Origin: Tubulanus polymorphus
Lineage: Eukaryota; Animalia; Nemertea
Length of the DNA: 64,000 nt
Assembly (NCBI RefSeq): GCF_964204645.1
Contig: NC_134025.1
Span: forward strand, 16,591,101-16,655,100
Direction of reading: 5' to 3'
Shown: one piece after another, positions 7,515 through 59,057 of the stretch
Numbering within the stretch: the stretch's first letter is position 1
Layout of the letters: each line of letters opens with the position of its first letter
The notes under the pieces: model-generated
The model's database searches: none
What the model saw: the letters and a program-made list of their open reading frames with translations, nothing else
What the model was told of the DNA's origin: nothing
Made by a program: the position numbers and the translations under genes

Positions 7515-8333
7515 CCAAATAGAGAACTGAAGCTAAAACTGATTTTGAGAAAGATTTCTTCAAGTTAATGAACAATGCATTCTATGGTAAGACTTGTGAA
7601 AATATTAGAAATAGAAATGATATTGAGTTAGTTAGTAATGGCAAAAGGATAAGGCATTTACAAACATACCCTTAATATATAGGTAAATGGATAAGTTATT
7701 AATGTATGAATTCTATTATAATGTATTACAACCTCATTTTGGAGAAAAACATATAGAAATCTTATATTTTGATACCGATTCTTACATATTGAAGATAAAA
7801 ACTAATAACATAACAGATGATTTAAAAACATTAAAACATCATTTTGATCTTAGTAACTATCCTAAAGATCATGAATTGTTTAGCAATGATAATAAAAAAG
7901 TTCCTGGTAAATTCAAAGATTAATTAGGTGGTGAAGAAATGATTGAATTCATAGGTATTAGATCTAAAATGTATTCATAAAAAACTAAAGAACATGAAGC
8001 TAAAAAGTTAAAAGGAATAACCAAAAGTGTAGTAGAAAAGAATATTCATTTCAAAGATTACATCAATTGTATATTCAATGAAGAAGTTAGAAAACATAAG
8101 ATGAGATGTTTAAGATCTGAAGATCATGAAATGTTTATTGAAGAAATTGAAAAGATTAGTCTAAACCCATTTGATGATAAAAGATATATTTTAGATGATG
8201 GAATTCATACAGTTGCTTATGGTTGTAATTTAGATGAATACTTAAAATTTAAAAGAGAAGAAACAAAAGAAAATGAGATAATGAAAAGAATTCTAACGTG
8301 TTAATCAAATTTTAATAAAAATATGTATTATAA

Positions 8334-8687
8334 ATGGAGAGAAAACAAGCACACCGTGAGAACAACAAATTATTTCTAGATAGAATAACAGATACTTCAA
8401 ATGTCAAATCAGTAGATTATAAATTTAAGAAGTTAAAAGAATTAATAATCCATAAGAAATATCTAATTACAAATATTGATACAGTTACTAACAAATATGG
8501 AGATAAATTAGTTATACACTTAGAATATGAAGGATTAAAAGGAAATAAATATAAATTCAGAACATATTTAGCAGATAGATTTCATAGATTATCAAGTGAA
8601 GATTTAGAAGAATTATGTTCTGGTGATTTCTATTTCATATACAAAGGTAAGAATGAAAAAGGGCATCATGAAATAGATTTCGAATAA
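8334..8687 (+). CDS. Conserved ~115-aa protein, possible OB-fold ssDNA-binding protein
   Basis: Homologous to 46295-46636 and 38503-38829 (FKKL..TNKYGDK..YLPDRF..YKGKN). Fold call is inference. Confidence 0.7.
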   Translation: MERKQAHRENNKLFLDRITDTSNVKSVDYKFKKLKELIIHKKYLITNIDTVTNKYGDKLVIHLEYEGLKGNKYKFRTYLADRFHRLSSEDLEELCSGDFYFIYKGKNEKGHHEIDFE

Positions 8688-8704
8688 GAAAATATGTAAA
8701 ATAA

Positions 8705-9213
8705 AGGGTAGAATTAAAAGAATATAGAATATTTGTTGATTCTAGAAGACTTACAAATTATAAATCTCATAATTTACTAGTTCAATTAGATAGGGAATAT
8801 AAAAGTTGTGTTGATTTAAAATTAGTAAATATAAGTTTATGTAACTCATTTTACAATATATCGAATAAAACTGTTGAACATAGAGCCTTTTTAATTTTTA
8901 ATAAAAATAAAAATGAATGGGCCTATATATCTTTAAAACCGGGGTTATATAATTTAGATACATTGGCACAAGAAATTAATAGAAAAGCCTGGCACAAGTC
9001 AGGTAATAATTCCGGGTTTTATATTAGATTTTTAAAAAGTGAGAGTTCTAACAAAATAAAGATAAGGTTGTCTGATATTGAAAAACATGCATTTATGGTA
9101 AAAAAAAACCTATAGCTAAACTGTTAGGAATTCCTCCAGATAAATCTTTTACAAATATTGATGCTACACCACACTTAATACCTTTTACACACTTTTATAT
9201 TTATTGCAATTTA
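8705..9213 (+). pseudogene. Minor capsid protein remnant (E1)
   Basis: Aligns to 46654-47415; start mutated (TAAAGG); frameshift; deletion at ~9213 removes its 3' end and most of the next gene. Confidence 0.85.
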
Positions 9214-9261
9214 AATAAGATAACTTAATATTTTGAAGATAGTAATTTTTTTGATAAATAA

Positions 9262-9483
9262 ATGAGTGATAATAAGTGGATAATAACTGGATTATATAAT
9301 GGAGCATTACTATCAGTTGGAACTGTTGGTTATTCAACGGTATTAAAAAAAGTATTTAAAATGGGAAGTGTTAATGTTGATAGATTTGATATAAATGATA
9401 TTTTAAAATTAACATTAGCAGTTACTTTATCTAATTTAACTATTGATTATTTGGAAAAACAAAAATATATTCCTCCCATATAA
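9262..9483 (+). CDS. 73-aa small hydrophobic protein
   Basis: Near-identical to 30208-30429 and 47775-47996. Confidence 0.85.
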   Translation: MSDNKWIITGLYNGALLSVGTVGYSTVLKKVFKMGSVNVDRFDINDILKLTLAVTLSNLTIDYLEKQKYIPPI

Positions 9484-9507
9484 ATACATAATTATTTTAC
9501 TAAATAA

Positions 9508-9950: not shown

Positions 9951-10376
9951 ATGGATGATAATATTGATATTATTCCTCATGATATAAATAAAACTAAATT
10001 AAAAATATATTTAGAAAAACAAATATTAGAATTTGAAAATGATTTAAAAGTTAAAAAGAAAAAATATTAAAAAAGTGAAATTATATATTATTTGATTATA
10101 AGTGGTTCGGTTACAATTAGTTCTGTAATAACATTTCTAGCAATATTCAGTCCATTAACACCTTTAGCTATATCAATTGGTGTGTTAGGATTAAGTTCAA
10201 GTGTTTTAACTGGTATAAGTTCAAAATTAAATATAAAAAGTAATAACGAAAAAATTAAAACTAATATAAAAGAGATTAATAAATTGAAAAATACACTAGA
10301 TTATATAATAAGTTTAAATGGTCATATAACAGTTGAAGAACAAGATAAATTATTAAAAGAATTAGTTAATTATTAA
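9951..10376 (+). pseudogene. 144-aa two-TM protein homolog with stop
   Basis: Aligns to 30897-31331. Confidence 0.85.
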
Positions 10377-10392
10377 TTTTTTAATTATATAA

Positions 10393-11694
10393 ATGGGGTT
10401 TCCAAAAGCTTTCCAATATAATAAATTAATTAAATATAATATTCCTGCAATAGATTTTAAAAAAAAATATTACAGATAAAAATGTAGTTTTAAATTCATT
10501 AACTAATTTAAAAATTTATGTTACTGAATCACAGTTTTTTATTTCTAAAATGGAAAATATATTTAATACATATGAAGTTACTTTTACTCGAGATGAATAT
10601 CATATATATAAAGTAAAATCTAATATGAAATATTGGCAGAATCAATTGAATTTTGCTGTTTATTGTGCAACAACAGGATGCGGAATAAGTTGGAATGATC
10701 ATTTAAATAACTTAGATAAAAATTTGAAGTATTCTGATTTAAAATTGATTCACACAATATTTAGATTTCACACATATTTTCAAATCAGAATAATATTAAA
10801 TGAATTAGAATGTCCTTTACCCGGATCTAAATATTTTAAAGAATTGGACAATAATATTAATCTATCTAAGTTTTATAAAATATGTAATGAATTTAACATA
10901 AATATTAATTCCGATTTTAGAGCGCATGGTAAATTGCAAGATGTTGGTGAAGAGTATGAAATAAAAAAAATTGATTATATGCATAGAATTGGAGCTTATC
11001 ATAATTATAAAATTGATAATAATAATGGTTGGGTTAATTTCATTTTAGAAAATGGCGAAGGTTTTACAAAATCAGGTATACAAAGAATAAATCAATCTAT
11101 TAGAACTTATTTGATATGTATTTTAGGCGCTCAAGTTGAAACAAGATCCCCAATAGTTGGAAATGATAACACTTCATTTGATTCGCAGAAACAATTCAAA
11201 GTATTATTTGAAGATTCCATTCATAATGATAAAAAATAGATCGATTCCAGAAAACAGTAAGATATCAAAATTATTTAGATGAATCACATATTAGATTAAA
11301 TTATTGTATAGGCCCTAATCTATTAATTATTTCTAATGATTTAGTATTAAAGATGGGAAATATAATTGGTTATTATAATCTAATTAAAACTGCAAGAATA
11401 AATAATTCATTTGGATTAAATGATATAAATAAAAAGATTATTACTGCTCCAAAATTAATGGAAGGTGAAAAAAATAAAAAACATATTCAATCAACAGAAA
11501 CTAAAACTAATAATATTAAATTAAATAATGATTCTAAAATAAAAGATTACAATACATCAGAAGATATAAAAACTGATATTATTCAACATGACATAATTAA
11601 ACTAAATGATGATTATAAATCCCATGAAAATACTAAATTAGCTTTAACTTGTATAGGAATTGTAATCGGAGGAATATTATATTTTAAATTTTAA
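10393..11694 (+). pseudogene. ~445-aa protein homolog (WQNQLNFAVxCATxGCG), frameshifted
   Basis: Aligns to 31348-32685 in pieces. Confidence 0.85.
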
Positions 11695-14578: not shown

Positions 14579-15450
14579 ATGGAAGGAGGTAAAATATATA
14601 AACATATTCCATACATTGATACACATGAAAATAATGATGGTTTATATTATGTAATACCTTGTAATATAGTTTTGATATTTGATCCTATTTTCAAAATTTA
14701 TAAAACTAAACTAATAGAAATCGATAATAATAAAAGTGGTGTTGTTGATAATTTAAGTAATGTAATTGATAATAATGTAATACCTTCTACATCTAATAAT
14801 GTAATACCTTCTACATCTAATAATGTAATACCTTCTACATCTAATAATGTAATACCTTCTACATCTAATAATGTAATACCTTCTACATCTAATAATGTAA
14901 TACCTTCTACATCTAATAATGAAATAATATTAAATATTAGTGAAAATAGAAATTATTGTGATTATTGTAAAGGCGAATTTTCAAACGCTCCATCAAATTG
15001 GAATAAACATATGAATACAAAGGTACATATAACTAATGTAATAGAACGTGTTGGTTTAAGAGAATTTATATAGAACACCCATTTAGATATGTTACAAAGT
15101 TTGTTTCAAATAAAAAAGTAAATGGTAAAGAATTATATGAAGATTTATTATTAGGTGTTGCTAATAAAGATGAATTAGATTTAACCGATGCTAATAAAAT
15201 ATTAGGATCAAACACTAAGAAAGATGATAATGAAAATATAGTTACAAATAAGCATATTGATAATAAAGATTCTATGAAACATAAAGTAGAAAATAATGAT
15301 AAATTTGATTGGATGAATAAGCATAACAATGAAACAACCAATGATGAAGATACGGTAGAGCATTTGAATAAATTGTTAGGGTTTGATGATGAATTGGAGA
15401 GTGATGATGAAAGTGATTCAGAAAGTAATTATCTAACACTCAAAAAGTAA
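14579..15450 (+). pseudogene. Variable zinc-finger protein with NNVIPSTS repeats, frameshift near 15070
   Basis: TAAATG start, MEGG N-terminus as in the E3 gene at 53335, CDYCK..WNKHMNTKVH finger. Confidence 0.6.
14771..14914 (+). repeat. Perfect 24-bp coding tandem repeat x6 (AATAATGTAATACCTTCTACATCT)
   Basis: Read directly; encodes NNVIPSTS x6. Confidence 0.95.
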
Positions 15451-21767: not shown

Positions 21768-21910
21768 AGTAATAGGGAATAAGTTGTTTCATATCAAAGG
21801 TTGAAGGGGCGAGTGAGTAAAAAATAAAAAATAAATTCGAGTGTGCGAGAATTTATTTTTTAAATTCGACCCTTCGACCTTTGGTATGAAACAACTTCTT
21901 CCCTATTACT
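21768..21910. repeat. Imperfect terminal palindrome at E1 right end
   Basis: AGTAATAGGGAA..GTTGTTTCATATCAAAGG pairs with CCTTTGGTATGAAACAAC..TTCCCTATTACT. Confidence 0.88.
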
Positions 21911-22498: not shown

Positions 22499-22588
22499 AG
22501 TAATTAGAAGATGGCGTTTTCATACCAGAGGGCGAGAGGGCGAGACACCACTCATCACCACAAGTAATTTTTTTCCCTAATAAATGGG
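22499..22588 (+). repeat. E2 left TIR (90 bp), ending in T7-CCCTAA-TAAATGGG
   Basis: Inverted copy at 38825-38914. Confidence 0.95.
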
Positions 22589-30204: not shown

Positions 30205-30207
30205 TAA

Positions 30208-37430: not shown

Positions 37431-37459
37431 ATCACATAATTAATTTTTTTGTTATATAA

Positions 37460-38366: not shown

Positions 38367-38398
38367 TATTTTAGAAAAAAAGCAAAAAAAATAATTGA

Positions 38399-38465
38399 AT
38401 ATCTCACTACTTTTGTCTATCCATGCGGAGCAATTAAATTGTCCAGATAAGTCATTTCGGATTCT
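38399..38465. other. Conserved non-coding motif shared by all three elements
   Basis: ATATCTCACTAC.TTGTCTAT..GGAGC..GTCCAGATAAGTCATTTCGGAT also at 57993-58090 and (rc) 18650-18719. Confidence 0.75.
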
Positions 38466-38502
38466 AGATATTCATTATTTTTATTAATTTATTTTTTTAA
38501 AT

Positions 38503-38829
38503 TTAATCAACAATTTCTAAATCATGATGACCGTCTTCATTTTTCCCATGATATATTATTTTAAATCCTACTAAATCTTTCAATTCCTCCATACTCAATG
38601 AAACCCATTTATCAGGTAAAAACACTTTAAATTCTCGCGATGTACTAACATTACAGTAGCTTAAATTAGCTGATACTTTCTCTCCATATTTAGTTTTTAT
38701 CTTTTCTAATTTCAATATTTTATGTTCAATTTCTTTTGTAACATCAATTAACTTTTTTATTTCAAATTGTTTTTTTGCTGGTTTTATTCTGTTATTTATT
38801 GTTGCTAAGAATGCTTTTCTATCTCCCAT
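38503..38829 (-). CDS. 108-aa homolog of the ~115-aa putative OB-fold protein
   Basis: KTKYGEK..VFLPDKW..YHGKNEDGHH; starts inside the right TIR. Confidence 0.8.
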   Translation of the reverse strand: MGDRKAFLATINNRIKPAKKQFEIKKLIDVTKEIEHKILKLEKIKTKYGEKVSANLSYCNVSTSREFKVFLPDKWVSLSMEELKDLVGFKIIYHGKNEDGHHDLEIVD

Positions 38830-38914
38830 TTATTAGGGAAAAAAATTACTTGTGGTGATGAGTGGTGTCTCGCCCTCTCGCCCTCTGGTATGAAAACGCC
38901 ATCTTCTAATTACT
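38825..38914 (-). repeat. E2 right TIR (90 bp)
   Basis: Reverse complement of 22499-22588; supplies the ATG of ORF 38503-38829. Confidence 0.95.
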
Positions 38915-41634: not shown

Positions 41635-41841
41635 AGTAATAGGGGTTTAGTTGTTCTATACCAAAGGTCGAAAGGTCGAGGTCGATAAATTTTCCAAAAT
41701 GTTAAAATAACAATAATTTCTACTTGAATTAGTCGCGTACACTCCTAATTCAAGTAGAAATTATTATTATTTTAACATTTGGAAAATTTATCAACCTCAA
41801 CCTCTCAACCTTTGATATAGCACAACTAAACCCCTATTACT
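41635..41841. repeat. 207-bp terminal palindrome (left)
   Basis: Arms AGTAATAGGGG...TTGAATTAG and CTAATTCAA...CCCCTATTACT around a 12-nt loop. Confidence 0.93.
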
Positions 41842-41934
41842 CTATCTAATCACAAGTCTCATAATTTACAAGCCTCAACACGTTGAGTATTGCGTATTAC
41901 ATGTTGATTCTAGAACAACCCATCTAGAAAACTA

Positions 41935-42180
41935 CATTAGCCAATCACAGTTGAATATTCCCTATTACTCTATCCAATCACAGTTGAGTATTTTACTATT
42001 AATCTATCCAATCACAGTTGAGTATTACTCTATCCAATCACAGTTGAGTATTCCCTATTACACTAGCCAATCACAAGCCTCATAATTTACAAGTCTCAAC
42101 ACGCAGCTGGGTTTCCCCCACTGTTGAGTAGTATAAATAGGCGGGACTCACACGTGGTAGGACTCACACGTGGTGGGACG
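41935..42180 (+). promoter_or_regulatory. Putative host RNA Pol II promoter for pPolB
   Basis: CCAAT at 41941, 41974, 42008, 42034, 42067; TATAAAT at 42132; GGCGGGA at 42140; two CACGTG in GGACTCACACGTGGT repeats. Confidence 0.6.
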
Positions 42181-42198
42181 CGTTGAGAGGTAAGTGTT

Positions 42199-46294: not shown

Positions 46295-46636
46295 ATGGAG
46301 AGTAAACAAGTACACAGTGAATTCTTAGATAGAATTAAAGATACTTCAAGCGTCAAATCTGTAGATTATAAATTTAAAAAACTAACTGAGTTAACAATTC
46401 ACAAGAAATATTTAATTACTAACATTGAAACAATTACTAATAAATATGGAGATAAATTAGTAATTCATTTAGAATATGAAGGATTAAAAGGAAATAAATA
46501 TAAATTCAGAACTTATTTACCAGATAGATTTCATAGATTATCAAGTGAAGATTTAGAAGAATTATGTTCTGGTGATTTCTATTTCATATACAAAGGTAAG
46601 AATGAAAAAGGGCACCATGAAATAGATTTCGAATAA
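46295..46636 (+). CDS. 113-aa putative OB-fold protein
   Basis: Homologs in E1 and E2; TAAATG start. Confidence 0.78.
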   Translation: MESKQVHSEFLDRIKDTSSVKSVDYKFKKLTELTIHKKYLITNIETITNKYGDKLVIHLEYEGLKGNKYKFRTYLPDRFHRLSSEDLEELCSGDFYFIYKGKNEKGHHEIDFE

Positions 46637-46653
46637 GAAAATATGTAAAATAA

Positions 46654-47415
46654 ATGGCGGAATTAAAAGAATACAGAATATTTGTAGATTCTAGAAAACT
46701 TACAAATTATAAATCACATTATTTATTAGTACAATTAGACAGAGAATTCAAAAATTGTGTAGATTTAAAATTAGTTAATATAAGTTTATGTAATTCTTTT
46801 TACAATATATCGAATAAAACTATTGAACATAGAGCTTTTTTAATTTTTAATAAAAATAAAAATGAATGGGTCTATATATATTTAAAACCAGGGTTATATA
46901 ATTTAGATACATTGGCACAAGAAATTAATAGAAAAGCCTGGCACAAATTAGGTAGTAGTTCTGGGTTTAGTATTAGATTTTTAAAAAGTGAGAGTTCTGA
47001 TAGAATAAAGATAAGGTTGTCTAATAGTGAAAAACATAAATTTATGGTAAAAAAACCTATAGCTAAACTGTTAGGAATTCTTCCAGATAGATCTTTTACA
47101 AATATTGACGCTACTACACCAAACTTAATACCTTACACACATTTTTATATTTATTGCAATTTAATTGATCCTACAAAAACATTCGAAGCAACTAAAGATA
47201 TAACTTGTAATTCTGGTTTACTAAACATTTTACCATTGAAGAATGTTAAAGAATTTGGAACGCAAATAAATCATAATTTAACAGAATGTGATTTCAAACC
47301 ATGCATTCCTCGTTTTAATAATTTTAGATTAGAAATTAGAAATCATAATGGATACTTAATTGATTTAAATAATTTCCCTGTAATTTATGAATTAGTTATA
47401 AGATGTAGAGAGTAA
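46654..47415 (+). CDS. Minor capsid (penton, single jelly-roll) protein
   Basis: NSFYNIS..LKPGLYNL..FYIYCNLID..LNILPL..LEIRNHNGYLIDLNNFPV pattern typical of Polinton mCP. Confidence 0.82.
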   Translation: MAELKEYRIFVDSRKLTNYKSHYLLVQLDREFKNCVDLKLVNISLCNSFYNISNKTIEHRAFLIFNKNKNEWVYIYLKPGLYNLDTLAQEINRKAWHKLGSSSGFSIRFLKSESSDRIKIRLSNSEKHKFMVKKPIAKLLGILPDRSFTNIDATTPNLIPYTHFYIYCNLIDPTKTFEATKDITCNSGLLNILPLKNVKEFGTQINHNLTECDFKPCIPRFNNFRLEIRNHNGYLIDLNNFPVIYELVIRCRE

Positions 47416-47432
47416 TTTTTTTCACTATATAA

Positions 47433-47774
47433 ATGAATATAACTGTTGGCCCGAGTATATGTTTTGGGTTTGATTTTAAACATGGTAAAGAAATGAGAAT
47501 TAAACTAAATGATGTAATTACTGATATAAAAAGTAAATTATTTAACAATGCGTCAATGATTGATAAAGAAAAGTATAATATAGAAAAAGTAATTGATTTA
47601 ATTAAATCACCTTTAGAATATTATGAATTAAATGAAGATGGAATTATTGAAGATATTAAAAACATATTATCCAAAATATATGATAATCATAAAACTAGTA
47701 ATGAAATAAATGTTGAAATAATCATAAATAAGTTAACTAAATATTTTGAAGATAGTAATTTTTTTGATAAATAA
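47433..47774 (+). CDS. Hypothetical 113-aa protein
   Basis: Homolog of 29851-30204. Confidence 0.8.
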   Translation: MNITVGPSICFGFDFKHGKEMRIKLNDVITDIKSKLFNNASMIDKEKYNIEKVIDLIKSPLEYYELNEDGIIEDIKNILSKIYDNHKTSNEINVEIIINKLTKYFEDSNFFDK

Positions 47775-47996
47775 ATGAGTGATAATAAGTGGATAATAAC
47801 TGGATTATATAATGGCGCATTACTATCAGTTGGAACGGTTGGTTATTCAATGGTATTAAAAAAAGTATTCAAAATGGGAAGTGTTAATGTTGATAGATTT
47901 GATATAAATGATATTTTAAAATTAACATTAGCAGTTACTTTATCTAATTTAACTATTGATTATTTAGAAAAACAAAAATATATTCCTCCCATATAA
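47775..47996 (+). CDS. 73-aa small hydrophobic protein
   Basis: Conserved in all three elements. Confidence 0.88.
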   Translation: MSDNKWIITGLYNGALLSVGTVGYSMVLKKVFKMGSVNVDRFDINDILKLTLAVTLSNLTIDYLEKQKYIPPI

Positions 47997-48020
47997 ATGC
48001 ATAATTTTTTTGCTAAATAA

Positions 48021-48443
48021 ATGGCTTCTGCAATTATAACTATTATAGGATCGGCAATTGTTAACGCTTTAGCATTTACTGGTGGTGGATATTTATTTAA
48101 ACATATTGATAAAAATAGTTCATTAGGAGAACAAAGAAGACATAACTTAGCGTTAGAGAAATACAATAAAGCTGCAGAAGAATATAGAGAAAAACGACAA
48201 AACTATATGGATTACATCAATAAAGAATTATATGATCAGAAGATTTCACATAGAGATTTTCAATCAGTTGATGATGCAATGAGTTTATATAACGCAGTAA
48301 CAAATAAAGAAAAATTACATCTATACACACCTAAATTATCAGATTATTATACCCCAAGTAAAGAACAACAGAAATATGAAATAATTTGGATTTTAGGTGG
48401 AACAGTTATTGTTATATTTGTAGCATATAAGTTTACTAATTAG
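48021..48443 (+). CDS. 140-aa membrane-associated protein
   Basis: Conserved in all three elements. Confidence 0.88.
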   Translation: MASAIITIIGSAIVNALAFTGGGYLFKHIDKNSSLGEQRRHNLALEKYNKAAEEYREKRQNYMDYINKELYDQKISHRDFQSVDDAMSLYNAVTNKEKLHLYTPKLSDYYTPSKEQQKYEIIWILGGTVIVIFVAYKFTN

Positions 48444-48461
48444 TAATTTTTTTCTAAATAA

Positions 48462-48896
48462 ATGGAAGATAAAGTTGATAGTATTGATATTATTCCTCAT
48501 GATATAAATAAAACTAAATTAAAAACATATTTAGAAAAACAAATATTAGAATTTGAAAGTGACTTAAAGATAAAAAAGAAAAAATATTTAAAAAGTAAAA
48601 TTATATATTATTTGATTATAAGTGGTTCGGTTACAATTAGTTCTGTAATAACATTTCTAGCAATATTCAGCCCATTAACACCTTTAGCTATATCAATTGG
48701 TGTATTAGGATTAAGTTCAAGTGTTTTAACTGGTATAAGTTCAAAATTAAATATAAAAAGTAATAAAGAAAAAATAAAATCTAATATAAAAGAAATTAAT
48801 AAATTAAAGAACACACTAGATTATATAATAAGTTTAAATGGCCATATAACAGTTGAAGAACAAGATAAATTATTAAAAGAATTAATAAATTATTAA
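48462..48896 (+). CDS. 144-aa two-TM protein
   Basis: Conserved in all three elements. Confidence 0.88.
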   Translation: MEDKVDSIDIIPHDINKTKLKTYLEKQILEFESDLKIKKKKYLKSKIIYYLIISGSVTISSVITFLAIFSPLTPLAISIGVLGLSSSVLTGISSKLNIKSNKEKIKSNIKEINKLKNTLDYIISLNGHITVEEQDKLLKELINY

Positions 48897-48913
48897 TTTT
48901 TTTAATTATATAA

Positions 48914-50302
48914 ATGGTAGATAGTTTTCCAAAAGCTTTCCAATACAATAAATCAATTAAATATAATATTCCAGCAATAGATTTTAATAAAGATATTACA
49001 TATAGAAATGAAGTTTTAGATTCATTAACTAATTTAGAAATTTATGTTACTGAAACTAATAATTTTAATGCAAAGATGGAAAATATATTTCATATATATT
49101 TAATTAATTTTTAAAAATTGAAAGATGAAAAACAATGGTTATTAAAATCTAATATGAAGTATTGGCAGAATCAATTAAATTTTGCTGTTTATTGTGCAAC
49201 AACAGGTTGTGGAATTAGTTGGAATGATCATTTGAATAATTCTAAATATAAACTAATTCAAAGTTTATTTAGATTTCATACATACTTTCAAATCAGAATA
49301 ATATTAAATGAATTAGTGTGCGCTTTACCAGGATCTAGGTATTTCAAAGAATTAGATAATAATATTAATTTATCTAAGTTTTATAAGATTTGCAATGAAT
49401 TTAATATAGATATAAATAATTCTGATTTTAGAACAAAAATTGGAACAATAAGATCACTTCCATGCCCTAGAAAGATTGCAGAATATTGTGCACTTCCCAT
49501 ACCATCTAATAGTTTTTATAATATCTATAATAATAAATTAGGTTATGGTAAAATAGAAACAAAGGATTTAGAAACATTAAATTTCAATAAATTACCGAAA
49601 TTTTACGATAATTTAAAACAAGAAAACAATAATGGTTGGGTTTATTTCATTTTAGAAAATAGTGAAGGTTTTACTAAATCAGGTATAGAAAGAATAAATC
49701 AATCTATTAGAATTTATTTGATATGTATTTTAGGCGCTCAAGTTGAAACAAGATCACCGATAATTGGAAATTTAAATACATCATTCGATACACAAAAACA
49801 ATTTAAAGTTTTATTTGAAGATTCCATACATAATGATAAAAATAGATCGATTCCAGAAAACATTATAAGATATCAAAATTATTTAGATAAATCACATATT
49901 AGATTAAATTATTGTATAGGTCCTAATCTATTAATTATTTCTAATGATTTAGTATTAAAGATGGGAAACATAATTGGTTATAATAATCTAATTAAAACCG
50001 CAACAATAAATAATTCATTTGGATTGAATGATATAAATAAAAAGATTATCACTGCTCCAAAATTAATGGAAGGTGAAAAAAATAAAAAACATATTCAATC
50101 AACAGAAACTAAAACTAAGAATATTAAATTAAATAATGATTCTAAAATAAAAGATTACAATACATCAGAAGATATAAAAACTGATAAAATTCAACATGAT
50201 ATAATTAAACTAAATGACGATAATAAATCCCATGAAAATACTAAATTAGCTATAACTTGTATAGGAATTGTAATCGGAGGAATATTATATTTTAAATTTT
50301 AA
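48914..50302 (+). pseudogene. ~445-aa conserved protein with one in-frame TAA (49112-49114)
   Basis: 66-aa and 394-aa ORFs are in the same frame and align to 31348-32685. Confidence 0.82.
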
Positions 50303-50318
50303 TTTTTTTATTATGTAA

Positions 50319-52034
50319 ATGGATGTAGAAGGTGGAGAAGATTATGAAATGGGAGAAATGGGAAATAATAATGAAGGATATATTGATGATGATTATAATG
50401 ATGCAGAAACTAATATTGATAATGATGATGAATCAGCATATAATACTAATTTAGGTGAAGATGATGATTATGATGATGATTATGATGATGATCCCGAATT
50501 ACGTGAAAAATTAAATAAATATTTAAAAGCTCCTGAAATTGGTAGAATTTCAACTAGAAGAGAAAGAAAAGAATTTATGGAACTATTAGAAAAACAACAA
50601 GAAAAATATCCTGATAAACCTATGGAATTATATAAAATGAAATCTAGAGTAACAGATACAATTGTTAACGAATTATTACCAACAGTTGTAATAGATGAAA
50701 TTGATTCAGAAGGTGTTGTAGAACAAATTTTTAAAGATGACCCATATTTCACAAATAATTTAGAATTTAAAAATGATTCATGGTATTATAATGTTAATTT
50801 AAATAACACAATTGTATCAATTCAATTATCTAAAATGGGTCAAGAAAATATTTATGAACCTGAAATGCGAGCAACATCTACAATTGAAGGTTCAAAAGGT
50901 GGTAGAGAATTTCTCAGAATTATATGGAATGCACTCGATAGAGTAAATGAAGAAGAACCAATTCCTAATATTGATATAAACAAATATTCACCATTTAAAA
51001 ATCCAAATCCAAATCCTACTGATTTTGATCCAGAAATGGAAGAGAATAGAAATCGATTAGATAAATTGAGATCTTCAACACCCGAAACATCGAGAAGAGA
51101 CACTCAACCAATTGATAATTATTCAAGTCAATTACAATTAGAAAAACAAATTGATAGATTAAGAGATTCAGAAGAACTGATGAATAGTATATCAGATACA
51201 TCTGGTTCTGAAACTGGAATAAATCGACTGCAATATTTACTAGAAAAAGGATTTCTTAATTTAACTGATGCAGAATTAGAAACATTTCCTGAACAAATAC
51301 GTAGAGAAATTAAAGGTATACAAGTATCAGCTGATGAAATTGCTAATATTAAGATGAGATTTTCTAAAATAACCATGTTAGAAAAAGAATTAGTTAATGT
51401 AGATGAAGAATTAAAACAATTAGAATTAAATAGAGATCATCAAGTAGTTTATGAAGCTGATTATGAAAGCAGAAAGTTAGCTTTAGTAAAAGAAATAGAT
51501 GATTTAGAATATAACATAAAATTACAAAAAGAAGAAAGAGATATATTATTAAAATCATATGATCTTAATCATATTAAAAAATTAAAAGTTATTTTTAAAG
51601 ATTTGTTGATAAAACCAGATTCTGAAATATCATTAAAAGACAGAATAAAGTTATTATTTAAGTTAGAAGGAATAACAATTCTTTCAATTCTAACAGCTGT
51701 AACTATGTTATTTACAACAATTGGTTTAGCAATATCAAATGCTTTAAAATCTACTCCTACTCCCACTCCCAATAAACCAGATAAACCTCCAGGTAATAAT
51801 TCTATACAAGATAAAGTTAAGGATGGTTTAAAAAAATTAGCAAAATATTTATGGGAACTATCAAAGAAATCTGCTGCAGCATTGCCAGGAGTTATTGCAT
51901 CAATTGTTGGTTTTATATTGAAATCTGCAGGAAACATTCTTAACTTTGCTGCTGAACATATTATTTTATTTTTAATTACAGTTGTAAGTGCTATTATTTT
52001 TGGGTTAGTAAATATGATATCAAAAAATAAATAA
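50319..52034 (+). CDS. 571-aa acidic/coiled-coil protein with C-terminal TM segments
   Basis: Variable N-terminal part, conserved hydrophobic C-terminus. Confidence 0.88.
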   Translation: MDVEGGEDYEMGEMGNNNEGYIDDDYNDAETNIDNDDESAYNTNLGEDDDYDDDYDDDPELREKLNKYLKAPEIGRISTRRERKEFMELLEKQQEKYPDKPMELYKMKSRVTDTIVNELLPTVVIDEIDSEGVVEQIFKDDPYFTNNLEFKNDSWYYNVNLNNTIVSIQLSKMGQENIYEPEMRATSTIEGSKGGREFLRIIWNALDRVNEEEPIPNIDINKYSPFKNPNPNPTDFDPEMEENRNRLDKLRSSTPETSRRDTQPIDNYSSQLQLEKQIDRLRDSEELMNSISDTSGSETGINRLQYLLEKGFLNLTDAELETFPEQIRREIKGIQVSADEIANIKMRFSKITMLEKELVNVDEELKQLELNRDHQVVYEADYESRKLALVKEIDDLEYNIKLQKEERDILLKSYDLNHIKKLKVIFKDLLIKPDSEISLKDRIKLLFKLEGITILSILTAVTMLFTTIGLAISNALKSTPTPTPNKPDKPPGNNSIQDKVKDGLKKLAKYLWELSKKSAAALPGVIASIVGFILKSAGNILNFAAEHIILFLITVVSAIIFGLVNMISKNK

Positions 52035-52054
52035 TTAATTTTTTTGTTAAATAA

Positions 52055-53302
52055 ATGAGTGGGAGTTATATCAATCCTTCTAAGAATCATAGAATATCTA
52101 ATGCTATTAAAGCAGAAAGATCACATCATATAATTACTCATAACCCTTCAAATATTAATCCCGATGAAACTTCATACGTTAGAATCCCTCGATTAACACA
52201 AAATACTTTTTATGTTCCAAATAGTATTTATTTATCAGCCGATATAAAAGTAATCGGTAATAATAATAATTATGTCGTTGATAATGTTGGAAGATATTTG
52301 ATTAAAAAATTAACTATAAAGATTGGTCCGGAAACAGTTTTCTCATTAGATGATTATAATTTATTTATGCATTATAAAGATTTATGGTTAACTAAAGAAA
52401 ATAGAAATAATATGATATTTCAAGGAATTCAATCAGAAAACCAAAATAAATTAAGATCAGAAGCTAATAGCGCAATATTAACAAATGATGTAGATAAATT
52501 GATAAAAAGTATATATGGAAGCAAATATAAAATTCCATTAGACTTTGAATTGATAAATAATAATGCACCTTTATATAAATACGCAATTCAAGAAGATATT
52601 ATATTCGAAATAACATTTGCTCCTGTAAATGAAATTGTATTATCTAGCGTTAATAAAGATATGAGTTATAAATTATCGAATATATGTTTAGAAAATGATA
52701 CAGTAACTGATGAAAATATTTCAAGTATAATTCAAACTCAATACAATCAAGGATTTTCATTATTATATGATTATATTGATAAATTTAAAACTGTAACTAT
52801 TAATGCAAATGATGAAATAATTAATGAGAATATTAACTTTCCTAGAAGATCTATTAAAGGTATATTAATATTTTTTACCATTGGAACGTATACTAATGGC
52901 GCAATAAATGTTGACAATTATTATAATCCTGAAATATCAAAAGTAGAAATAACTATTGAAGGTATAGCGAATAAAATATTTTGTCAAGGAATGAGAATGA
53001 TAGATCAATGGGTAGAAATTAGAAAACATTTTATGAATGAAAAAGTAAAATCATCTGAAAATTGTAACATTAATCAAATTGATTATTATACCGGTAATAA
53101 ATATGCATTATGGTTAGATTTTAGAACAACTGAAGATAACTTATTACATGGTTCTGGAAAAAAACTACAGAACACTAAAGATGGAATACAATTATTCATG
53201 AAAAAGAAAAAAGGAAGCTTAAATTTTAAAATGCATATTTATATTATATCTGACGCGCAATTAAATATTGTAAATTCACAATTAGATAGTGTTATGTATT
53301 AA
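52055..53302 (+). CDS. Major capsid protein (double jelly-roll), 415 aa
   Basis: Highly similar to 34161-35408. Confidence 0.8.
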   Translation: MSGSYINPSKNHRISNAIKAERSHHIITHNPSNINPDETSYVRIPRLTQNTFYVPNSIYLSADIKVIGNNNNYVVDNVGRYLIKKLTIKIGPETVFSLDDYNLFMHYKDLWLTKENRNNMIFQGIQSENQNKLRSEANSAILTNDVDKLIKSIYGSKYKIPLDFELINNNAPLYKYAIQEDIIFEITFAPVNEIVLSSVNKDMSYKLSNICLENDTVTDENISSIIQTQYNQGFSLLYDYIDKFKTVTINANDEIINENINFPRRSIKGILIFFTIGTYTNGAINVDNYYNPEISKVEITIEGIANKIFCQGMRMIDQWVEIRKHFMNEKVKSSENCNINQIDYYTGNKYALWLDFRTTEDNLLHGSGKKLQNTKDGIQLFMKKKKGSLNFKMHIYIISDAQLNIVNSQLDSVMY

Positions 53303-53334
53303 AATTTTAACTTTAATAAAAAATCTTATATTAA

Positions 53335-54462
53335 ATGGAAGGTGGAATATATGAAATACAAACTCCAAGTGAAATGATATCAGATATATATTATATATTA
53401 CCTTATGATGAATACAGTAAGTATTTTGGAGATTACTTTAATCAATTCAAATATAGAATAAGTAAAATAAAAGATAATATTGAATATAAAATAGAAGATA
53501 ATATTGAAACTAAAATAGAAGATAAGAATGATATTGAATATAAAATAGAAGATGTAACAGCATCTACATCTTATAATATACCCTCTACATATGATATTGA
53601 ATCAAAAAAGACAAATGAAAAATATTGTGACGTATGTAAACAGTATAAAAGTTATAAGAATTGGGCAACTCATCTTAATTCACTCAAGCATGAGAAAAAT
53701 AAGAATAAGATTTTAAATGAATTGAATAATGATAGTGAAATTGATAATGATAATGTTAAAGAAGATAAATATTGTGAAGAATGTGATAAATATATAAGTC
53801 GTAGTAATTTTTCAAAACATAAATTAACACAGATACATTTGGATAATATAGAAAGAAATATATGTGAAAAGTGTAATGTTGTTGTATTACCTAAAGATAG
53901 AATTAAACATGATAATTCTTTTGAACATACAATAAAAGCTGCTGATTTAAATTACCTTTATAGAGTACCAACTGTATTTTTTGATATCGAAAATAATGAT
54001 CATAGGAAATTATATAGATCAATTTTTATCGATTATGTAAGAAATAATCCAAAACAAGTATTATCAGATATTAAAATTGGTCGGACGCTTATAAAAATTG
54101 ATCTAAATAATTATTGGGGTATATATTATTTCATCAAATTTAAAAGGAGAGATTTTTTAACAGAATTGAAAAAAGTTGCTGCTAATGATAATATAAGTGA
54201 TAACTTTGATGAAATAATTCAATACTATAGTTATGAAGATTTTTCACAGGATGTTATAAATAAAATAAGAAATGAAGCAAAAAATGAATATAAAAATATA
54301 AGTGAAGACAAATTAAACCAATATATTTATTTAACTTATGAATTCTTTGTTAAGGGTTTGAATGGTAATGGTTATCATTTTAAACTATTAGGTGAAAGAA
54401 GATCACAAGAATTAAGAGTTGCATGGCGCAAATTGTTTTTAGAATTAGAATCAGAAAAGTAA
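53335..54462 (+). CDS. Multi-zinc-finger protein, C-terminus weakly VLTF-3-like
   Basis: CDVC..HLNSLKH, CEEC..HKLTQIH, CEKC..HDNSFEH; LTYEFF..FKLL..QEL..AWRKL. Confidence 0.7.
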   Translation: MEGGIYEIQTPSEMISDIYYILPYDEYSKYFGDYFNQFKYRISKIKDNIEYKIEDNIETKIEDKNDIEYKIEDVTASTSYNIPSTYDIESKKTNEKYCDVCKQYKSYKNWATHLNSLKHEKNKNKILNELNNDSEIDNDNVKEDKYCEECDKYISRSNFSKHKLTQIHLDNIERNICEKCNVVVLPKDRIKHDNSFEHTIKAADLNYLYRVPTVFFDIENNDHRKLYRSIFIDYVRNNPKQVLSDIKIGRTLIKIDLNNYWGIYYFIKFKRRDFLTELKKVAANDNISDNFDEIIQYYSYEDFSQDVINKIRNEAKNEYKNISEDKLNQYIYLTYEFFVKGLNGNGYHFKLLGERRSQELRVAWRKLFLELESEK

Positions 54463-54489
54463 TTTAAAATATGAATATAATACCCTTTG

Positions 54490-55015
54490 TGTCTTTATTG
54501 TCTTTAGTAGTTTAGTACTTTTAGTACATAAAGAATAAATCTTTATTTTATTAGTAGTGAATAAAATTATTTTTAAAACTACTAAACTACTAAAGACAAT
54601 AAAGACATAAATATATATATATAACACTGTTTCAATAATTATATTTATTCATCTGATGGATTTTATATATTACTGTTTCAATAATTAAATCTATTTATCA
54701 CACATATTTATTATATATATCATAGATTTACCATTTATAAAAATTATTTATATATTTATTCTTTATGTACTAAAATTATAAAAGATAATAAACACATAAC
54801 AAAACACATATAGATGTAATAAATATCATAGATTTATTTATCTCACATATTTATTATATATATTTAATTCAGTAATAATAAATCTATATGTGTTTGTTAT
54901 GTCTTTATTATCTTTAGTAGTTTAGTAGTTCTATTTTATTTTATTCACTACTAATAAAATAAAGATTTATTCTATATGTACTAAAAGTACTAAACTACTA
55001 AAGATAATAAAGACA
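54490..55015. repeat. Nested inverted-repeat (fold-back) region between convergent gene arrays
   Basis: 54490-54567 is the rc of 54938-55015 (2 mismatches); 54577-54609 is the rc of 54897-54930. Confidence 0.85.
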
Positions 55016-55074
55016 TTAGGGGGAGGTATATAATACATATCTAATACATATCTAATACATAGGTATACAAATAG

Positions 55075-55689
55075 TTATTTTATAAATTTATATTCATATG
55101 GAAATTGTAGTCTCAGAAGTAATTTGGAACCTTTATTATTCTTTAATTTATTCATATATTCATCGTGTAATTCAGTAGGTATAATTTGATTTTCTTCCAA
55201 AGATTGTTGCATAGATTTTCTATCTTTGTTGTAGAATAAAACTAGAAATCTTATATTCTCTCTAAAATCTTTCACAATTGAATTATATTTCTGATTTAAA
55301 ACCCAAGTTGTTATCCCAAAATGTCTACCAGAGAAAGCTAAATAACATAACTCACTTTCTCTAATTTTAGAATCATGTAAATTTGCGCAATCATCGATAA
55401 TAAATAATGTATTAGATCCTTTATAAATATCTAATGCAATTTTTATACAATTATCTAAATTATCTTTTACTGTTTTAGAATTTAATATAATAAACTTTTT
55501 ATCTTTAAAAACTATATCTCTATTATACGTTTCATTCATTTCATAAGTTGGGCAGAATAATATTATATTATCGAAATGATTTTTATAAATAGTTTCTAAT
55601 AAATCTAATATGAAGTGTGTTTTACCACAATTTGTAAATCCAGTAACTAACATATTATGTGGTTCAAATATAAACAAATCTTTATTCAT
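55075..55689 (-). CDS. A32-like packaging ATPase
   Basis: GFTNCGKT, LFIIDD, SGRH. Confidence 0.93.
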   Translation of the reverse strand: MNKDLFIFEPHNMLVTGFTNCGKTHFILDLLETIYKNHFDNIILFCPTYEMNETYNRDIVFKDKKFIILNSKTVKDNLDNCIKIALDIYKGSNTLFIIDDCANLHDSKIRESELCYLAFSGRHFGITTWVLNQKYNSIVKDFRENIRFLVLFYNKDRKSMQQSLEENQIIPTELHDEYMNKLKNNKGSKLLLRLQFPYEYKFIK

Positions 55690-56770
55690 TTATTCTTTTA
55701 ATTTTACTAGATAAAATCCATTCATTAAATTTATCATCATATCCTTTATATTTCACCAGAGAATATTTCTTACCGCGTAATGTTTTAGTTTTCAATACCT
55801 TTTCTATTTTGTATTCTATTTCATCTGGATTTGGTACTAATGATAATTCTTGTTCATAAAAATAACCTAATATTTCTTCATCTTTTAAATCAAACAATTT
55901 ATAAACAAATGGTTTAGTTAATATTATCTTTTTAATCTTGAATATTTCTTCAGTAAAATTAGGGGTATAACCTTTATAAAATGTTTTTCTATATTTAGAA
56001 ATTCTAACATGTTGTCCTATTTTAAATTTAGGTTCTCCAAAATCATGTGTAACAAATGCTCCATATAAATTATTCCAAACTATTTCTGAATTATCTTCTT
56101 TTCTAGCTTGTATAGGTTTCATATTTATAGAACTATGTTTAGAATTATTATAACCTTTCACTAAATCATCTAACACATCGATATATTTATCTGTTTCATT
56201 AGCAGTAAAATATTTCCACATTCTAGTTTTCAATGTTTTATTAAATCTTTCTATAACAGATGCTTTTTTATCTGAGTGTGTTGAAAAATATTCTACATCG
56301 TTATCAGACAATAGTTTATTGAAATGTTTGTTATAAAATTCTTTACCTTCATCAAATTGTATCTTATCTGGAATAGCTTCTTTAAATATAGATTTAAAAG
56401 CATTTGTTACTTCTATTCCAGTTTTATTTTTGATTGGAATTGACCATGCGTATCTACTGAATATGTCTATAACATTTAGTATCCAAAAATATCCTTTGTT
56501 ATATTCTTCTAAGTTTTTCATATCAATTAAATCAGCTTGCCATTGTTGGTCAATATATGAAACCATTACTTTTCTTGTTAAATATTTTCTATCCATCTTT
56601 TTATGAATTTGATATGTGGGTTGATTTTGTAACCATGATTTTAATTCACTATATTTTATTTTTTCTTTATCAGATTTAATTTTATCCCATAATTCCGAAA
56701 CACTTGAATATGAAACTTCACTTTCTGGGTTATAATATAAATCTCTTAAATATTGTTCTTTTTTCATCAT
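55682..56770 (-). CDS. RVE integrase with chromodomain-like C-terminus
   Basis: QWQADLIDM, IQFDEGKEF, SVIERFNKT. Confidence 0.94.
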   Translation of the reverse strand: MMKKEQYLRDLYYNPESEVSYSSVSELWDKIKSDKEKIKYSELKSWLQNQPTYQIHKKMDRKYLTRKVMVSYIDQQWQADLIDMKNLEEYNKGYFWILNVIDIFSRYAWSIPIKNKTGIEVTNAFKSIFKEAIPDKIQFDEGKEFYNKHFNKLLSDNDVEYFSTHSDKKASVIERFNKTLKTRMWKYFTANETDKYIDVLDDLVKGYNNSKHSSINMKPIQARKEDNSEIVWNNLYGAFVTHDFGEPKFKIGQHVRISKYRKTFYKGYTPNFTEEIFKIKKIILTKPFVYKLFDLKDEEILGYFYEQELSLVPNPDEIEYKIEKVLKTKTLRGKKYSLVKYKGYDDKFNEWILSSKIKRINE

Positions 56771-56773
56771 ATT

Positions 56774-57154
56774 TTAATCCATTAATAATATTTTAGATTT
56801 ATTTTCATTTGATTTATTTTCTGGTATGATAGGTTTATCATCGGAATCATCTTTATCATCAGAATTGAATTTTGATTTATATATTACACCGGAGAATATA
56901 ATAATTGTGATTAACCCAATTGTAATATATAAGTAATTATTTCTTCCACTATTAGAAGAATTAGATGGATTATTATTTGAATCAATACCACCGTGTGGGT
57001 GCCGTACGGCATCATCAGATAATTTCTGTGATTCATTTATATCAGTTAATTTCTTTTTCTTAGCTTTTTTTAATTCTGATGATCTTTTACCTAATTCTCT
57101 TGCCCATTTAATTTGTTTCTCGGATCTAGCCTTTTTCTTAACGCTATCACTCAT
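56774..57154 (-). CDS. 126-aa basic single-TM protein
   Basis: RSEKQIKWARELG; carries the in-frame AVRHPHG palindrome insert. Confidence 0.82.
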   Translation of the reverse strand: MSDSVKKKARSEKQIKWARELGKRSSELKKAKKKKLTDINESQKLSDDAVRHPHGGIDSNNNPSNSSNSGRNNYLYITIGLITIIIFSGVIYKSKFNSDDKDDSDDKPIIPENKSNENKSKILLMD

Positions 57155-57749
57155 TTATTTTAGTTAATTTTTGTTCTGATTCATTTTCTGTTTCGACGTT
57201 TGGTTGTAGTACATCTGTTTCGTTCTTACCTGATTTATATTCCATAGGCTTGATATTCGAAAATGTTATAACTCCAGTAGAAATCAATGTCATAACCGAT
57301 CCTAATTGAAATGAAGCATAACCGACCCATTTTTGTAATTCAGTCATAACTAAATAGTCATTTTTCAAATCATTATATAATTTATTTTCATCATCAATTG
57401 GTATTAACTGGTTACATAACTTAGAATAACATTTGACAATACCATTCGAAATAGAATCATTTATTTTAGATAATCTTGCCTCTTCATAAATCTTAAAATA
57501 TTTTATTACTTTATCGGGTTTCATAGCATCTAATTCTTGAAAAGTTATTATTTTTCCCAAGAAATCCTTAGATTTCCCTCCAGCAATTAATAATTCAAGA
57601 TGGTCCTTACAATATAAATAGTATTCATAATCAATATTACAATTAATATTATTTTCAATTTTGATTGGAATATCCTTATTATCACTAATGCCTAAATCAT
57701 CTAATGTTTTTTCAATGTTGGTATTATTCTTATTAGATTTCTTTGACAT
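57147..57749 (-). CDS. 200-aa conserved protein
   Basis: Homologs in E1 and E2. Confidence 0.85.
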   Translation of the reverse strand: MSKKSNKNNTNIEKTLDDLGISDNKDIPIKIENNINCNIDYEYYLYCKDHLELLIAGGKSKDFLGKIITFQELDAMKPDKVIKYFKIYEEARLSKINDSISNGIVKCYSKLCNQLIPIDDENKLYNDLKNDYLVMTELQKWVGYASFQLGSVMTLISTGVITFSNIKPMEYKSGKNETDVLQPNVETENESEQKLTKINE

Positions 57750-58079
57750 TTATATAGGAGAAAAAAGCAAGAAAAATATTATAAGTATTATAAAATGATA
57801 CTAGCTAGTTAAAGCTAAAGAATTCTAGTATTGACTACTGATACTAGCTATTTGAATTTAAAGAATTTCTATTTGAATCTATTCAAAATATAAAGTATTC
57901 TCTTTTTGAAAAGAAAATATTAAAAATATAATAGAATTCACTAGCAGTTGAAGTTATTGTTTTTTTATTATATTTTATTTAAATTAGGATCTAATATCTC
58001 ACTACTATTGTCTATCACTGTGTGGGTGCTGTTTATGGCACCATCTATTAGGAGCAGTAACTATAACTGTCCAGATAAG

Positions 58080-58757
58080 TCATTTCGGATCCTTGATATC
58101 AAATTCCTCAACGTATCGTTCATTATTTGGATTATTGTTCCATTGATCAATAAATTTCTTTGCCTTTGTTAACTGTTCTAAATATAACGGTAAATCTAGT
58201 TTATTAGATTTGATTTGATTTTCTTTCTTTTCTAAAGGTCTTAAATTTTTCCAACCCCAAATAAGTTTTTTATTGTATTCATCATTCATGTTAAATTTAG
58301 ATATTGGTAACACATGATCAATATGGTAATAATCCCCATAATTATCTATATTCATTTTATCATCAAATTGAAATATAATCCATGATTTGAGAAATTCATC
58401 TGAACAACCCAATAGATAAGATAGTGTTTCTGAATGTGTTTCTTTGTTGAATAATTGTGTTAATCTAGTCCTTAAGCATTGTTTCAATCTAAAATTAAGA
58501 TCTGTTTGATATCTTTCTCTCATATATTCTGCCATATAATAATTATAATGTTCTATATTATCTTCTCGATATTGTTTAGTATATAGTTTAGTGCAAGTTT
58601 TACAGCAATATTGAAAACCATCTTTGCTAATCTTACGCTTACTAAATTCTGTTAAAGCTAATTTATCTAATTCACATTTAGAACACTTCTTGTAATATAT
58701 GTTTATAACGCCAGTGTTATTTGTAATATTGATAGTTTGTGGTTGTTCTGGTTCCAT
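58080..58757 (-). CDS. HNH-type endonuclease
   Basis: CSKC..CKTC, HIDHVLPISKF, WKNLRPL..EN..KSN. Confidence 0.82.
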   Translation of the reverse strand: MEPEQPQTINITNNTGVINIYYKKCSKCELDKLALTEFSKRKISKDGFQYCCKTCTKLYTKQYREDNIEHYNYYMAEYMRERYQTDLNFRLKQCLRTRLTQLFNKETHSETLSYLLGCSDEFLKSWIIFQFDDKMNIDNYGDYYHIDHVLPISKFNMNDEYNKKLIWGWKNLRPLEKKENQIKSNKLDLPLYLEQLTKAKKFIDQWNNNPNNERYVEEFDIKDPK

Positions 58758-59057
58758 TTATTATACGTATTTTTGCACGTTTGTAATAATGATTCATAAT
58801 ATCTCGGCGTCATAGTAACAACTGTAACAGCTGTGAATTTATAGATTTATTCCATAGCTCTGTACATTGAATGTATATAGGCTCAAATAGAATCATTTTC
58901 TAGTATAAACATCGGATCCTCAACGTATTGTTCATTATTTGGATCATTATTCCATAATTCAATAAATTTCTTTCCCTTTGTTAACTGTTCTGAATATTCT
59001 AGTTTCAATTTATTCTCTAAATGTGTTTTAGTTTTATTGTGTCTTGCTTTTTGGGAT

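Follow-up and report, generated by a model that had tools for sequence, protein, structure and literature searches.

Introduction

How animal Polintons, which carry capsid genes and no RNA polymerase, come to be expressed is an open question, and so is whether any of them live as virophages; in the literature surveyed, protists and algae are the only hosts in which the dependence of a virophage has been demonstrated. The question is raised by a stretch of 64,000 nucleotides from the nemertean Tubulanus polymorphus (assembly GCF_964204645.1, contig NC_134025.1, positions 16,591,101 to 16,655,100; this whole stretch is referred to as the window), in which three related Polintons (E1, E2 and E3) and one BEL/Pao retrotransposon are located. 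Nearly all genes of the three elements start in the sequence TAAATG and resemble the post-replicative genes of poxviruses in this respect. Judging from sequence, we put the probability at about two in three that E1, E2 and E3 are integrated Polintons with pox-type post-replicative promoter motifs, and that a poxvirus-type virus infecting the same cell supplies the RNA polymerase which transcribes them. The elements are arranged as follows (window positions):

1 to 21910, plus strand: E1, a degraded Polinton whose left end lies beyond the window and most of whose open reading frames (ORFs) are frameshifted
646 to 7500 (right end approximate), minus strand: BEL/Pao long terminal repeat retrotransposon, which interrupts the E1 polB gene and whose genes start without the motif; a retrotransposon of this family points to an animal host
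22499 to 38914, plus strand: E2, a Polinton with AGT..ACT ends, a 6-bp target duplication (GCTGTG) and 15 genes
41635 to 63686, plus strand: E3, a Polinton with the target duplication AATACG, a split g445 and no VLTF3 gene

The start-codon motif

A preliminary description of this DNA had counted TAAATG over the start codon in 14/15 genes of E2, 14/16 of E3 and 12/13 scorable genes of E1. The recount agrees with these figures: the motif covers 14 of the 15 starts in E2, 14 of 17 in E3 (14 of 16 if the duplicated polB is counted once) and 12 of 14 homologous starts in E1, one of which has lost its start codon. The E1 positions are:

E1 starts in TAAATG: 8334, 9262, 9508, 9951, 10393, 11711, 13314, 14579, 15990, 18965, 19558, 21023

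The sole exception in E2 is the penton-like gene at 29036, which reads TAAATAATG. Those in E3 are the two polB copies (second ATG in TAAAATG, at 42232 and in the mirror copy) and the integrase at 56770 (TAAAATATG). In E1, the integrase start is without the motif and the start codon of the penton-like gene is the one lost. The exceptions are near misses. The gag (7062) and pol (5820) starts of the BEL element are without the motif, as had been stated for gag.

Among all ATGs, TAAATG occurs at a frequency of 7-8% (48/651 in E2, 50/679 in E3); the values are 46/569 for out-of-frame sense ATGs and 16/400 for antisense ones. The internal ATGs suggested earlier as a control proved unusable in frame (0/139), since TAA would be a stop codon there. 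The enrichment at starts corresponds to a binomial p of about 1e-14 if the kinship of the elements is ignored; the genes of E1-E3 are 90-97% identical and the independent units are the approximately 17 gene families.

The sequence upstream of the motif falls into two classes. A run of five or more T at -13 to -7 from TAAAT is present in 19 of 28 starts and in 4 of 54 internal TAAATG sequences (p 2e-8). In the other nine starts an A-run precedes a T at -9, which resembles the vaccinia intermediate class, and T at -9 is found in 89% of all starts. The T-run layout, which had been given as the general pattern, is thus that of the 19 starts and not of the remaining nine. The seven layouts quoted in its support are all present: T8-GTTAAA at 30455, T7 at 34161, 48021, 37460, 22584 and 38829, and T5 at 28967. 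The entire motif fits into intergenic gaps of 16-25 nt; the E2 virion-module genes are mostly 3-25 nt apart, with the gap containing the whole T-run and TAAATG.

Both features of a poxvirus post-replicative promoter, the TAAAT initiator over the start and a T-rich (19/28) or A-rich (9/28) core, are therefore found in the window. The late promoter of vaccinia places TAAAT(G) on the start codon; T residues lie 5-7 nt before it, and a T near -10 is conserved. Its intermediate promoter has TAAA with an upstream A-rich run and then T (PMC5294985, PMC11980589; the spacing is that given in reviews, and published articles are drawn on here and below for parts of their text).

Conservation of the motif in relatives

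Of 238 metagenome loci carrying this capsid gene, the best 80 were compared. The tree of the major capsid protein (MCP) comprised 57 rows, was computed by a quick method without the loci whose capsid ORF was shorter than 330 amino acids, and was counted by row labels. The 15-row clade containing the window elements (SH-aLRT 97) has TAAATG at 55 of 63 starts. The motif covers 9/9 starts in two separate rows; it is absent from all 46 starts of six neighbouring rows and occurs at 3 of 257 in a 34-row clade. The three clade members with 41% GC kept it at 9 of 11 starts. In groups bounded by GC content, which were picked after the motif had been seen, 30 of 35 starts read TAAATG in positive loci with a GC content of at least 0.30, and 1 of 41 in nine outside loci below 0.37. 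Since the 41%-GC loci keep the motif and the AT-rich outside loci do not have it, composition does not explain it. The motif is enriched over an AT-rich background both against other ATGs and against these outside loci.

An origin of the motif other than as a promoter, i.e. AT bias, coupling of a TAA stop to the following ATG, or overlap with an upstream AATAAA poly(A) signal, has some features in its favour: the elements have 24% GC, TAA is the commonest stop codon (25/31) and 17 of the 28 window starts read AATAAATG. However, the TAA is the stop codon of the upstream gene in 2 of 28 window starts (36567 and 47775) and 2 of 71 in relatives, TAG or TGA precedes the ATG at 1 of 83 starts of positive loci, and 11/28 starts in the window and 42/68 in relatives read other than AATAAATG. 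Neither stop-start coupling nor poly(A) overlap thus explains the motif well. Terminal and divergent genes without an upstream partner (22584, 28967, 38829) also carry the motif. A non-promoter origin, which the composition of the relatives also contradicts, is largely refuted and we consider it very improbable.

A farther set of loci (L056, L058, L059, L062 and L080), whose capsid proteins are 33-36% identical, has TAAATG at 12 of 14 starts; L058 and L080 branch away from the main positive clade. In locus L003, which is a close relative, a cargo deoxynucleoside kinase gene (10340-10981; dNK, E 2e-31) lies behind a full T-run and TAAATG. The MCP scan found no relative among viral contigs and two distant matches among prokaryote genome contigs. 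No usable match for g201 and g117 was obtained in the protein atlas.

The predicted late transcription factor of E2

27651 to 28967, minus strand: E2 VLTF3/A2-like late transcription factor gene, with a T5-N6-TAAATG start

This gene is predicted from its sequence to encode a late transcription factor of the VLTF3/A2 type. N-terminal zinc fingers are followed by a CxxC..CxxC ribbon and a Pox_VLTF3 domain (approximately 27729-28343), which scored E 4e-6 and 27.1 bits against the curated cut-off of 25 (Pfam) and was missed in the whole-protein scan. Four matches were found among 1.84 billion representative proteins. P0155 has an N-terminus in common with a gene in the positive locus L003, and P0156 and P0157 resemble element proteins. 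The only non-Polinton match, P0158, has an A2L ribbon with which the CxxC..CxxC of the E2 protein aligns, and is 60-63% identical to named entomopoxvirus VLTF-3. Neither a word-indexed search with the VLTF3 region nor PDB sequence searches gave a match.

Against a profile built from seven pox A2 proteins the E2 factor scored 55.9 bits; a profile from 80 giant-virus VLTF3 segments gave 9.0. Its structural model had a pLDDT of 89.7 (41 for the single-sequence fold). The top match of the fold search was cowpox VLTF3 (E 8e-6) and VLTF3 proteins filled the list, in which B385R of African swine fever virus (ASFV) ranked 20th; Foldseek against PDB gave no match at E<=0.001. In the comparison with TFIIB and cyclins, the best Z was 7.0 (yeast TFIIB, root-mean-square deviation 3.9, 95 aligned) in a cyclin-rich list with all Z<8. 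VLTF3 is known in some coral polintoviruses (PMC11131425). The by-eye idea that E3 g375 is another VLTF3 was unsupported on checking.

Poxvirus and giant virus stretches

The motif scan of viral contigs covered 120 loci (68/694 starts) and brought up a single chordopoxvirus and a single giant virus bin, L128. In the chordopoxvirus stretch (L105), six of nine TAAATG starts have the T-run. About half of the starts in pox stretches read TAAATG (9/16, 8/17, 6/15), whereas the motif stands before nearly all genes of E1-E3; these pox and giant-virus references are small samples. The upstream DNA of L128 is TTTAAA-rich, and the bin has genes for topoisomerase IB, capping enzyme and ligase.

The TATA-type sister branch

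In the sister loci that do not have TAAATG, a TATA precedes the ATG by 5-22 nt at 23 of 28 starts (expected 3.0). The signal is listed for L036, L051/L053, L065, L029 and L017, with these counts of starts in metagenome loci:

L051: 9/9 (expected 0.5)
L036: 6/8
L065: 5/5
L029: 6/8

By its position, this TATA lies too near the ATG for a TATA box of RNA polymerase II (Pol II) and resembles the ASFV late initiator, which is TA*TA with a median 5' untranslated region (UTR) of 9 nt (PMC7163114). L036 and L051 encode the other, giant-virus (NFLSY-type) VLTF3; a change of promoter type between the clades thus goes with a change of VLTF3 type. Promoter motifs also differ among EMALE types with different helpers (PMC10945749). 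The joint change fits tuning to a helper and also fits a private factor-promoter pair. A TCTA signal like that of Cafeteria roenbergensis virus (CroV) was enriched in the high-GC clade as a group (17/65 starts), with at most two genes per locus, and was rejected as kinship.

Structure of the elements

The remaining features of E2 are:

22499 to 22588, plus strand: left 90-bp terminal repeat, with a T7-N6-TAAATG promoter motif before polB (22584)
24157 to 27654, plus strand: protein-primed polB, C-terminal piece with intein (DNA_pol_B_2, E 6e-19)
29036 to 33937, plus strand: virion-module genes, i.e. the penton-like gene (putative), g117, g73, g140, g144, g445 and g411
34161 to 35408, plus strand: putative MCP, with a T7-GTTAAA-TAAATG start
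35439 to 37175, plus strand: rve integrase with chromodomain and A32 packaging ATPase, TAAATG of the A-run class
37460 to 38366, plus strand: g201 and g122, TAAATG starts
38825 to 38914, minus strand: right 90-bp terminal repeat, with the identical promoter motif before g108 (38829)

Those of E3 are:

41635 to 41841, plus strand: terminal hairpin (-73.3 kcal/mol as DNA, z -19)
42232 to 46266, plus strand: polB from the second ATG, in an A-run and TAAAATG context
46295 to 54462, plus strand: g113, penton-like gene, g117, g73, g140, g144, g445, g411, MCP (52055) and g375, TAAATG at 10/10
55075 to 58757, minus strand: HNH-like gene, g201, g122, integrase and ATPase, TAAATG at 4/5
59058 to 63089, minus strand: mirror copy of polB

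Gene content points to the Polintons for E1-E3 rather than to the virophage taxon (Maveriviricetes). A protein-primed family B polymerase, an rve integrase (E 2e-10 and 2e-9, with chromodomain) and an A32 packaging ATPase (Pox_A32, E 2.5e-13 and 3.5e-12; all Pfam) are present, and E2 and E3 have terminal inverted repeats, AG..CT ends and a 6-bp target duplication. The E3 polB is a homologue of that of E2. When the capsid protein was tested for a double jelly-roll family, the best Pfam match was the weak Capsid_N (E 0.016), with 922 unnamed homologues; neither an adenovirus-type cysteine protease nor the virophage capsid family, by which group 1 Mavericks and the virophage taxon are recognised, was found among 34 ORFs (Pfam), although several of these ORFs have no assignment and a remote protease may escape such a search. 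Capsid homologues of the P0046 cluster (55% identity) carry Bartonella names in NCBI/UniRef and are probably carried-over animal DNA.

Each of the three elements has broken genes; in E2 these are polB, the penton-like gene and g411. Purifying selection is seen between E2 and E3, with a ratio of nonsynonymous to synonymous substitution rates (dN/dS) of 0.05-0.34 in 5/5 gene pairs. Raw DNA reads of the same species over conserved E3 genes are deep and 1-10% divergent, and the family is therefore multi-copy, as judged by read depth and divergence.

The terminal repeats of E3 measure 4627 bp (41635-46261 and 59060-63686, nine mismatches), each with a whole inward-reading polB. Imperfect terminal hairpins of about 200 nt are present in E3 (41635-41841) and, in related form, in E1 (approximately 21770-21910), and there is none in E2. 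The E3 centre (54462-55075), between the converging gene blocks, is AT-rich and non-coding with apparent internal inverted repeats. E1 contains approximately 2 kb of unrelated DNA at 16.7-18.7 kb, and its g375-like gene contains a 24-nt tandem array (14722-14961). The intein of E2 polB (LAGLIDADG_3, E 3e-5; Intein_splicing, E 1e-4, under its cut-off; Pfam) is missing from E3 polB; a LAGLIDADG intein is uncommon in an element of an animal genome. The E2 terminal repeat contains AAGATGGCG at 22509-22517, with a mirror in the right repeat, which we take to match a YY1 site.

Discussion

No RNA polymerase or TATA-binding protein (TBP) family was found among the window proteins (Pfam). Since no polymerase gene was found, something else must read the promoters of E1-E3. 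In E2, the polB gene (85 bp from the terminus) and the VLTF3 gene themselves start at the motif, and thus no host-readable first step is apparent there. The proposal of the preliminary description that a poxvirus-type helper transcribes the elements gains support from the clade-wide conservation of the motif, the layout shared with a chordopoxvirus, the VLTF3 of E2 and the missing polymerase gene; against it stand the Pol II-like block before E3 polB and the fact that TAAATG alone is not unique to poxviruses. Its term virophage-like suits elements without a polymerase and with a helper-type motif before nearly all genes, and does not suit them in the taxonomic sense, since their gene content is that of Polintons. 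The provirophages that are transcribed by giant viruses are the parallel we propose.

The elements might instead be autonomous nuclear viruses whose own TFIIB-like VLTF3, supplied in cis or by sibling copies, steers host Pol II; the pox look would then be inherited from the donor of the factor, and Pol II blocks would account for early expression, one example being the following in the E3 repeat:

41941 to 42195, plus strand: host Pol II-like block with CCAAT x5, TATAAATA (42132), CACGTG x2 and a GTAAGT donor-like site (42190)

The zinc ribbon and the modelled cyclin/TFIIB-like fold of the E2 VLTF3 are consistent with this, as are the joint change of promoter and VLTF3 types and the VLTF3 genes of coral polintoviruses. 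The E3 block is in itself a possible helper-independent route to the replicase. However, polB and VLTF3 of E2 sit behind the motif, no TBP gene was found in the window, and most genomic copies are without the block: the read depth is 95-186 at three places in it, against at least 500 in polB, with 693 reads diverging before 42203. Moreover, a transcript begun in TAAAT would have no 5' UTR without slippage, which is described for the polymerases of poxviruses and of yeast virus-like elements (VLEs) (PMC6211774). We regard the nuclear explanation as unlikely.

Slightly less probable again is a helper outside the poxviruses, i.e. another virus of the Nucleocytoviricota using a TAAAT initiator. 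No poxvirus was seen in this host, and L128 has TAAATG at 10 of 18 starts. TAAATG alone is therefore not diagnostic of poxviruses. However, the T-run is present in 1 of these 10 starts, and the layout profile of L128 shows no correlation with that of the elements (r -0.02). The E2 VLTF3 is also far nearer to pox A2 than to the giant-virus segments, and B385R stood low in the fold search.

Besides L128 and the Pol II-like block before E3 polB, several observations weigh against transcription by a poxvirus-type helper. The two entomopoxvirus stretches match the T-run layout poorly (3/14), so that, of the two pox samples, the chordopox one comes nearer to the element layout, and the layout profile correlates (r 0.53, p 0.016) for the pooled pox only, neither pox group being significant alone. 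For polB, the penton-like gene and g108/g113, a T-run in one of the two elements E2 and E3 corresponds to an A-run in the other; the two classes are therefore no clean match for early and late functions. The scan of 120 viral loci gave no helper tied to this host, and neither the window nor the scanned subset of relative ORFs (27 references from 146 unassigned ORFs, plus others) yielded a subunit of a pox RNA polymerase. E2 is the only carrier of VLTF3 in the window, E1 and E3 being without it. The E2 factor joins pox A2 at 91/96 in a tree that has long branches and includes none of the asfarviruses, egoviruses or iridoviruses, for which the approximately unbiased (AU) test does not reject a single Polinton VLTF3 clade (p 0.343). 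Finally, the alignment behind the fold model contained pox sequences, and AT-biased composition may inflate the similarity to entomopoxviruses.

If a poxvirus-type helper is nevertheless at work, element DNA would get into its cytoplasmic factory, where the helper polymerase would start inside TAAAT and add a slipped 5' poly(A) leader in place of the absent 5' UTR; such addition of A residues by slippage is known for the polymerases of vaccinia and the yeast VLEs (PMC6211774). A VLTF3 of the E2 type may then join or compete in the late initiation complex of the helper in favour of the element genes, and the replicated genomes would be packaged or re-integrated in the nucleus. Protection of the host by the elements is a possibility by analogy with mavirus only.

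Among known systems, mavirus and the type-4 endogenous mavirus-like elements (EMALE04) of Cafeteria burkhardae (PMC10945749) are similar in being integrated 15-25 kb DNA viruses with a protein-primed polB, an rve integrase and no RNA polymerase, in which a helper-type late motif precedes the genes and differs by element type. They differ in their virophage capsid lineage, protist host and CroV helper, and their reactivation and protective effect were demonstrated experimentally, whereas E1-E3, with Polinton genes, an animal host, a pox-type motif and, in E2, a VLTF3 of their own, are known from sequence alone. The entomopoxvirus-associated Polinton-like viruses (PLVs) AHEV_PLV1/2, CBEV_PLV1 and Ca_PLV1 (Barth et al., PMC11296320) are likewise proposed poxvirus hyperparasites, and genes have been exchanged between element and poxvirus. 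By description rather than sequence comparison, they are set apart by a size of approximately 12 kb, an adenovirus-type protease, the absence of an rve integrase (two have a tyrosine recombinase) and their location in occlusion bodies. The words promoter, transcription and VLTF do not occur in the main text of that article.

Vaccinia intermediate and late promoters and A2 (VLTF-3) share with our elements TAAAT(G) over the start, the upstream T-run or A-run and a VLTF3-family gene (PMC11980589, PMC5294985), but E1-E3 are integrated elements of 16-22 kb with no polymerase, capping enzyme or further pox transcription factor. Mavericks/Polintons, including the 'adintoviruses' (PMC8502044; PMC11131425; 10.64898/2026.06.19.733378), have in common with them the protein-primed polB, the rve integrase with chromodomain, the A32 ATPase, terminal repeats, the 6-bp target duplication and, in a subgroup, VLTF3; in contrast to these, no cysteine protease was detected in E1-E3. 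The word promoter is absent from the main texts of these three articles. The yeast pGKL elements are linear, with a pox-like TAAAN initiator and 5' poly(A) leaders, but are cytoplasmic and have their own RNA polymerase and capping enzyme (PMC6211774), neither of which E1-E3 encode.

Promoter mimicry by virophages and PLVs in entomopoxvirus occlusion bodies (PMC11296320) are thus already known. A literature search, covering main texts and few subscription journals, found no description of pox-type promoters in animal Polintons. New here are the clade-wide conservation of the motif, the pox-like VLTF3 and the TATA-type sister branch. As the promoter is one that the vaccinia polymerase should read, a reporter insert of 30 bp is enough to test the question. 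Such a promoter also predicts a poxvirus-type virus in hosts where none was seen, and offers a molecular link for the reported and unexplained association of PLVs with entomopoxviruses.

More tentatively, and at less than even odds, one widely distributed lineage among the animal Polintons may be made up of integrated elements that parasitise large DNA viruses, with a different helper for each branch: the present branch by pox promoters and A2, and its sister by asfarvirus-like TATA and a giant-virus-type VLTF3. If this were true, undiscovered animal viruses could be charted from the promoter motifs in animal genomes, and the elements would be a candidate inherited antiviral system, of which the branch in Tubulanus polymorphus would hijack an as yet unseen poxvirus of its host.

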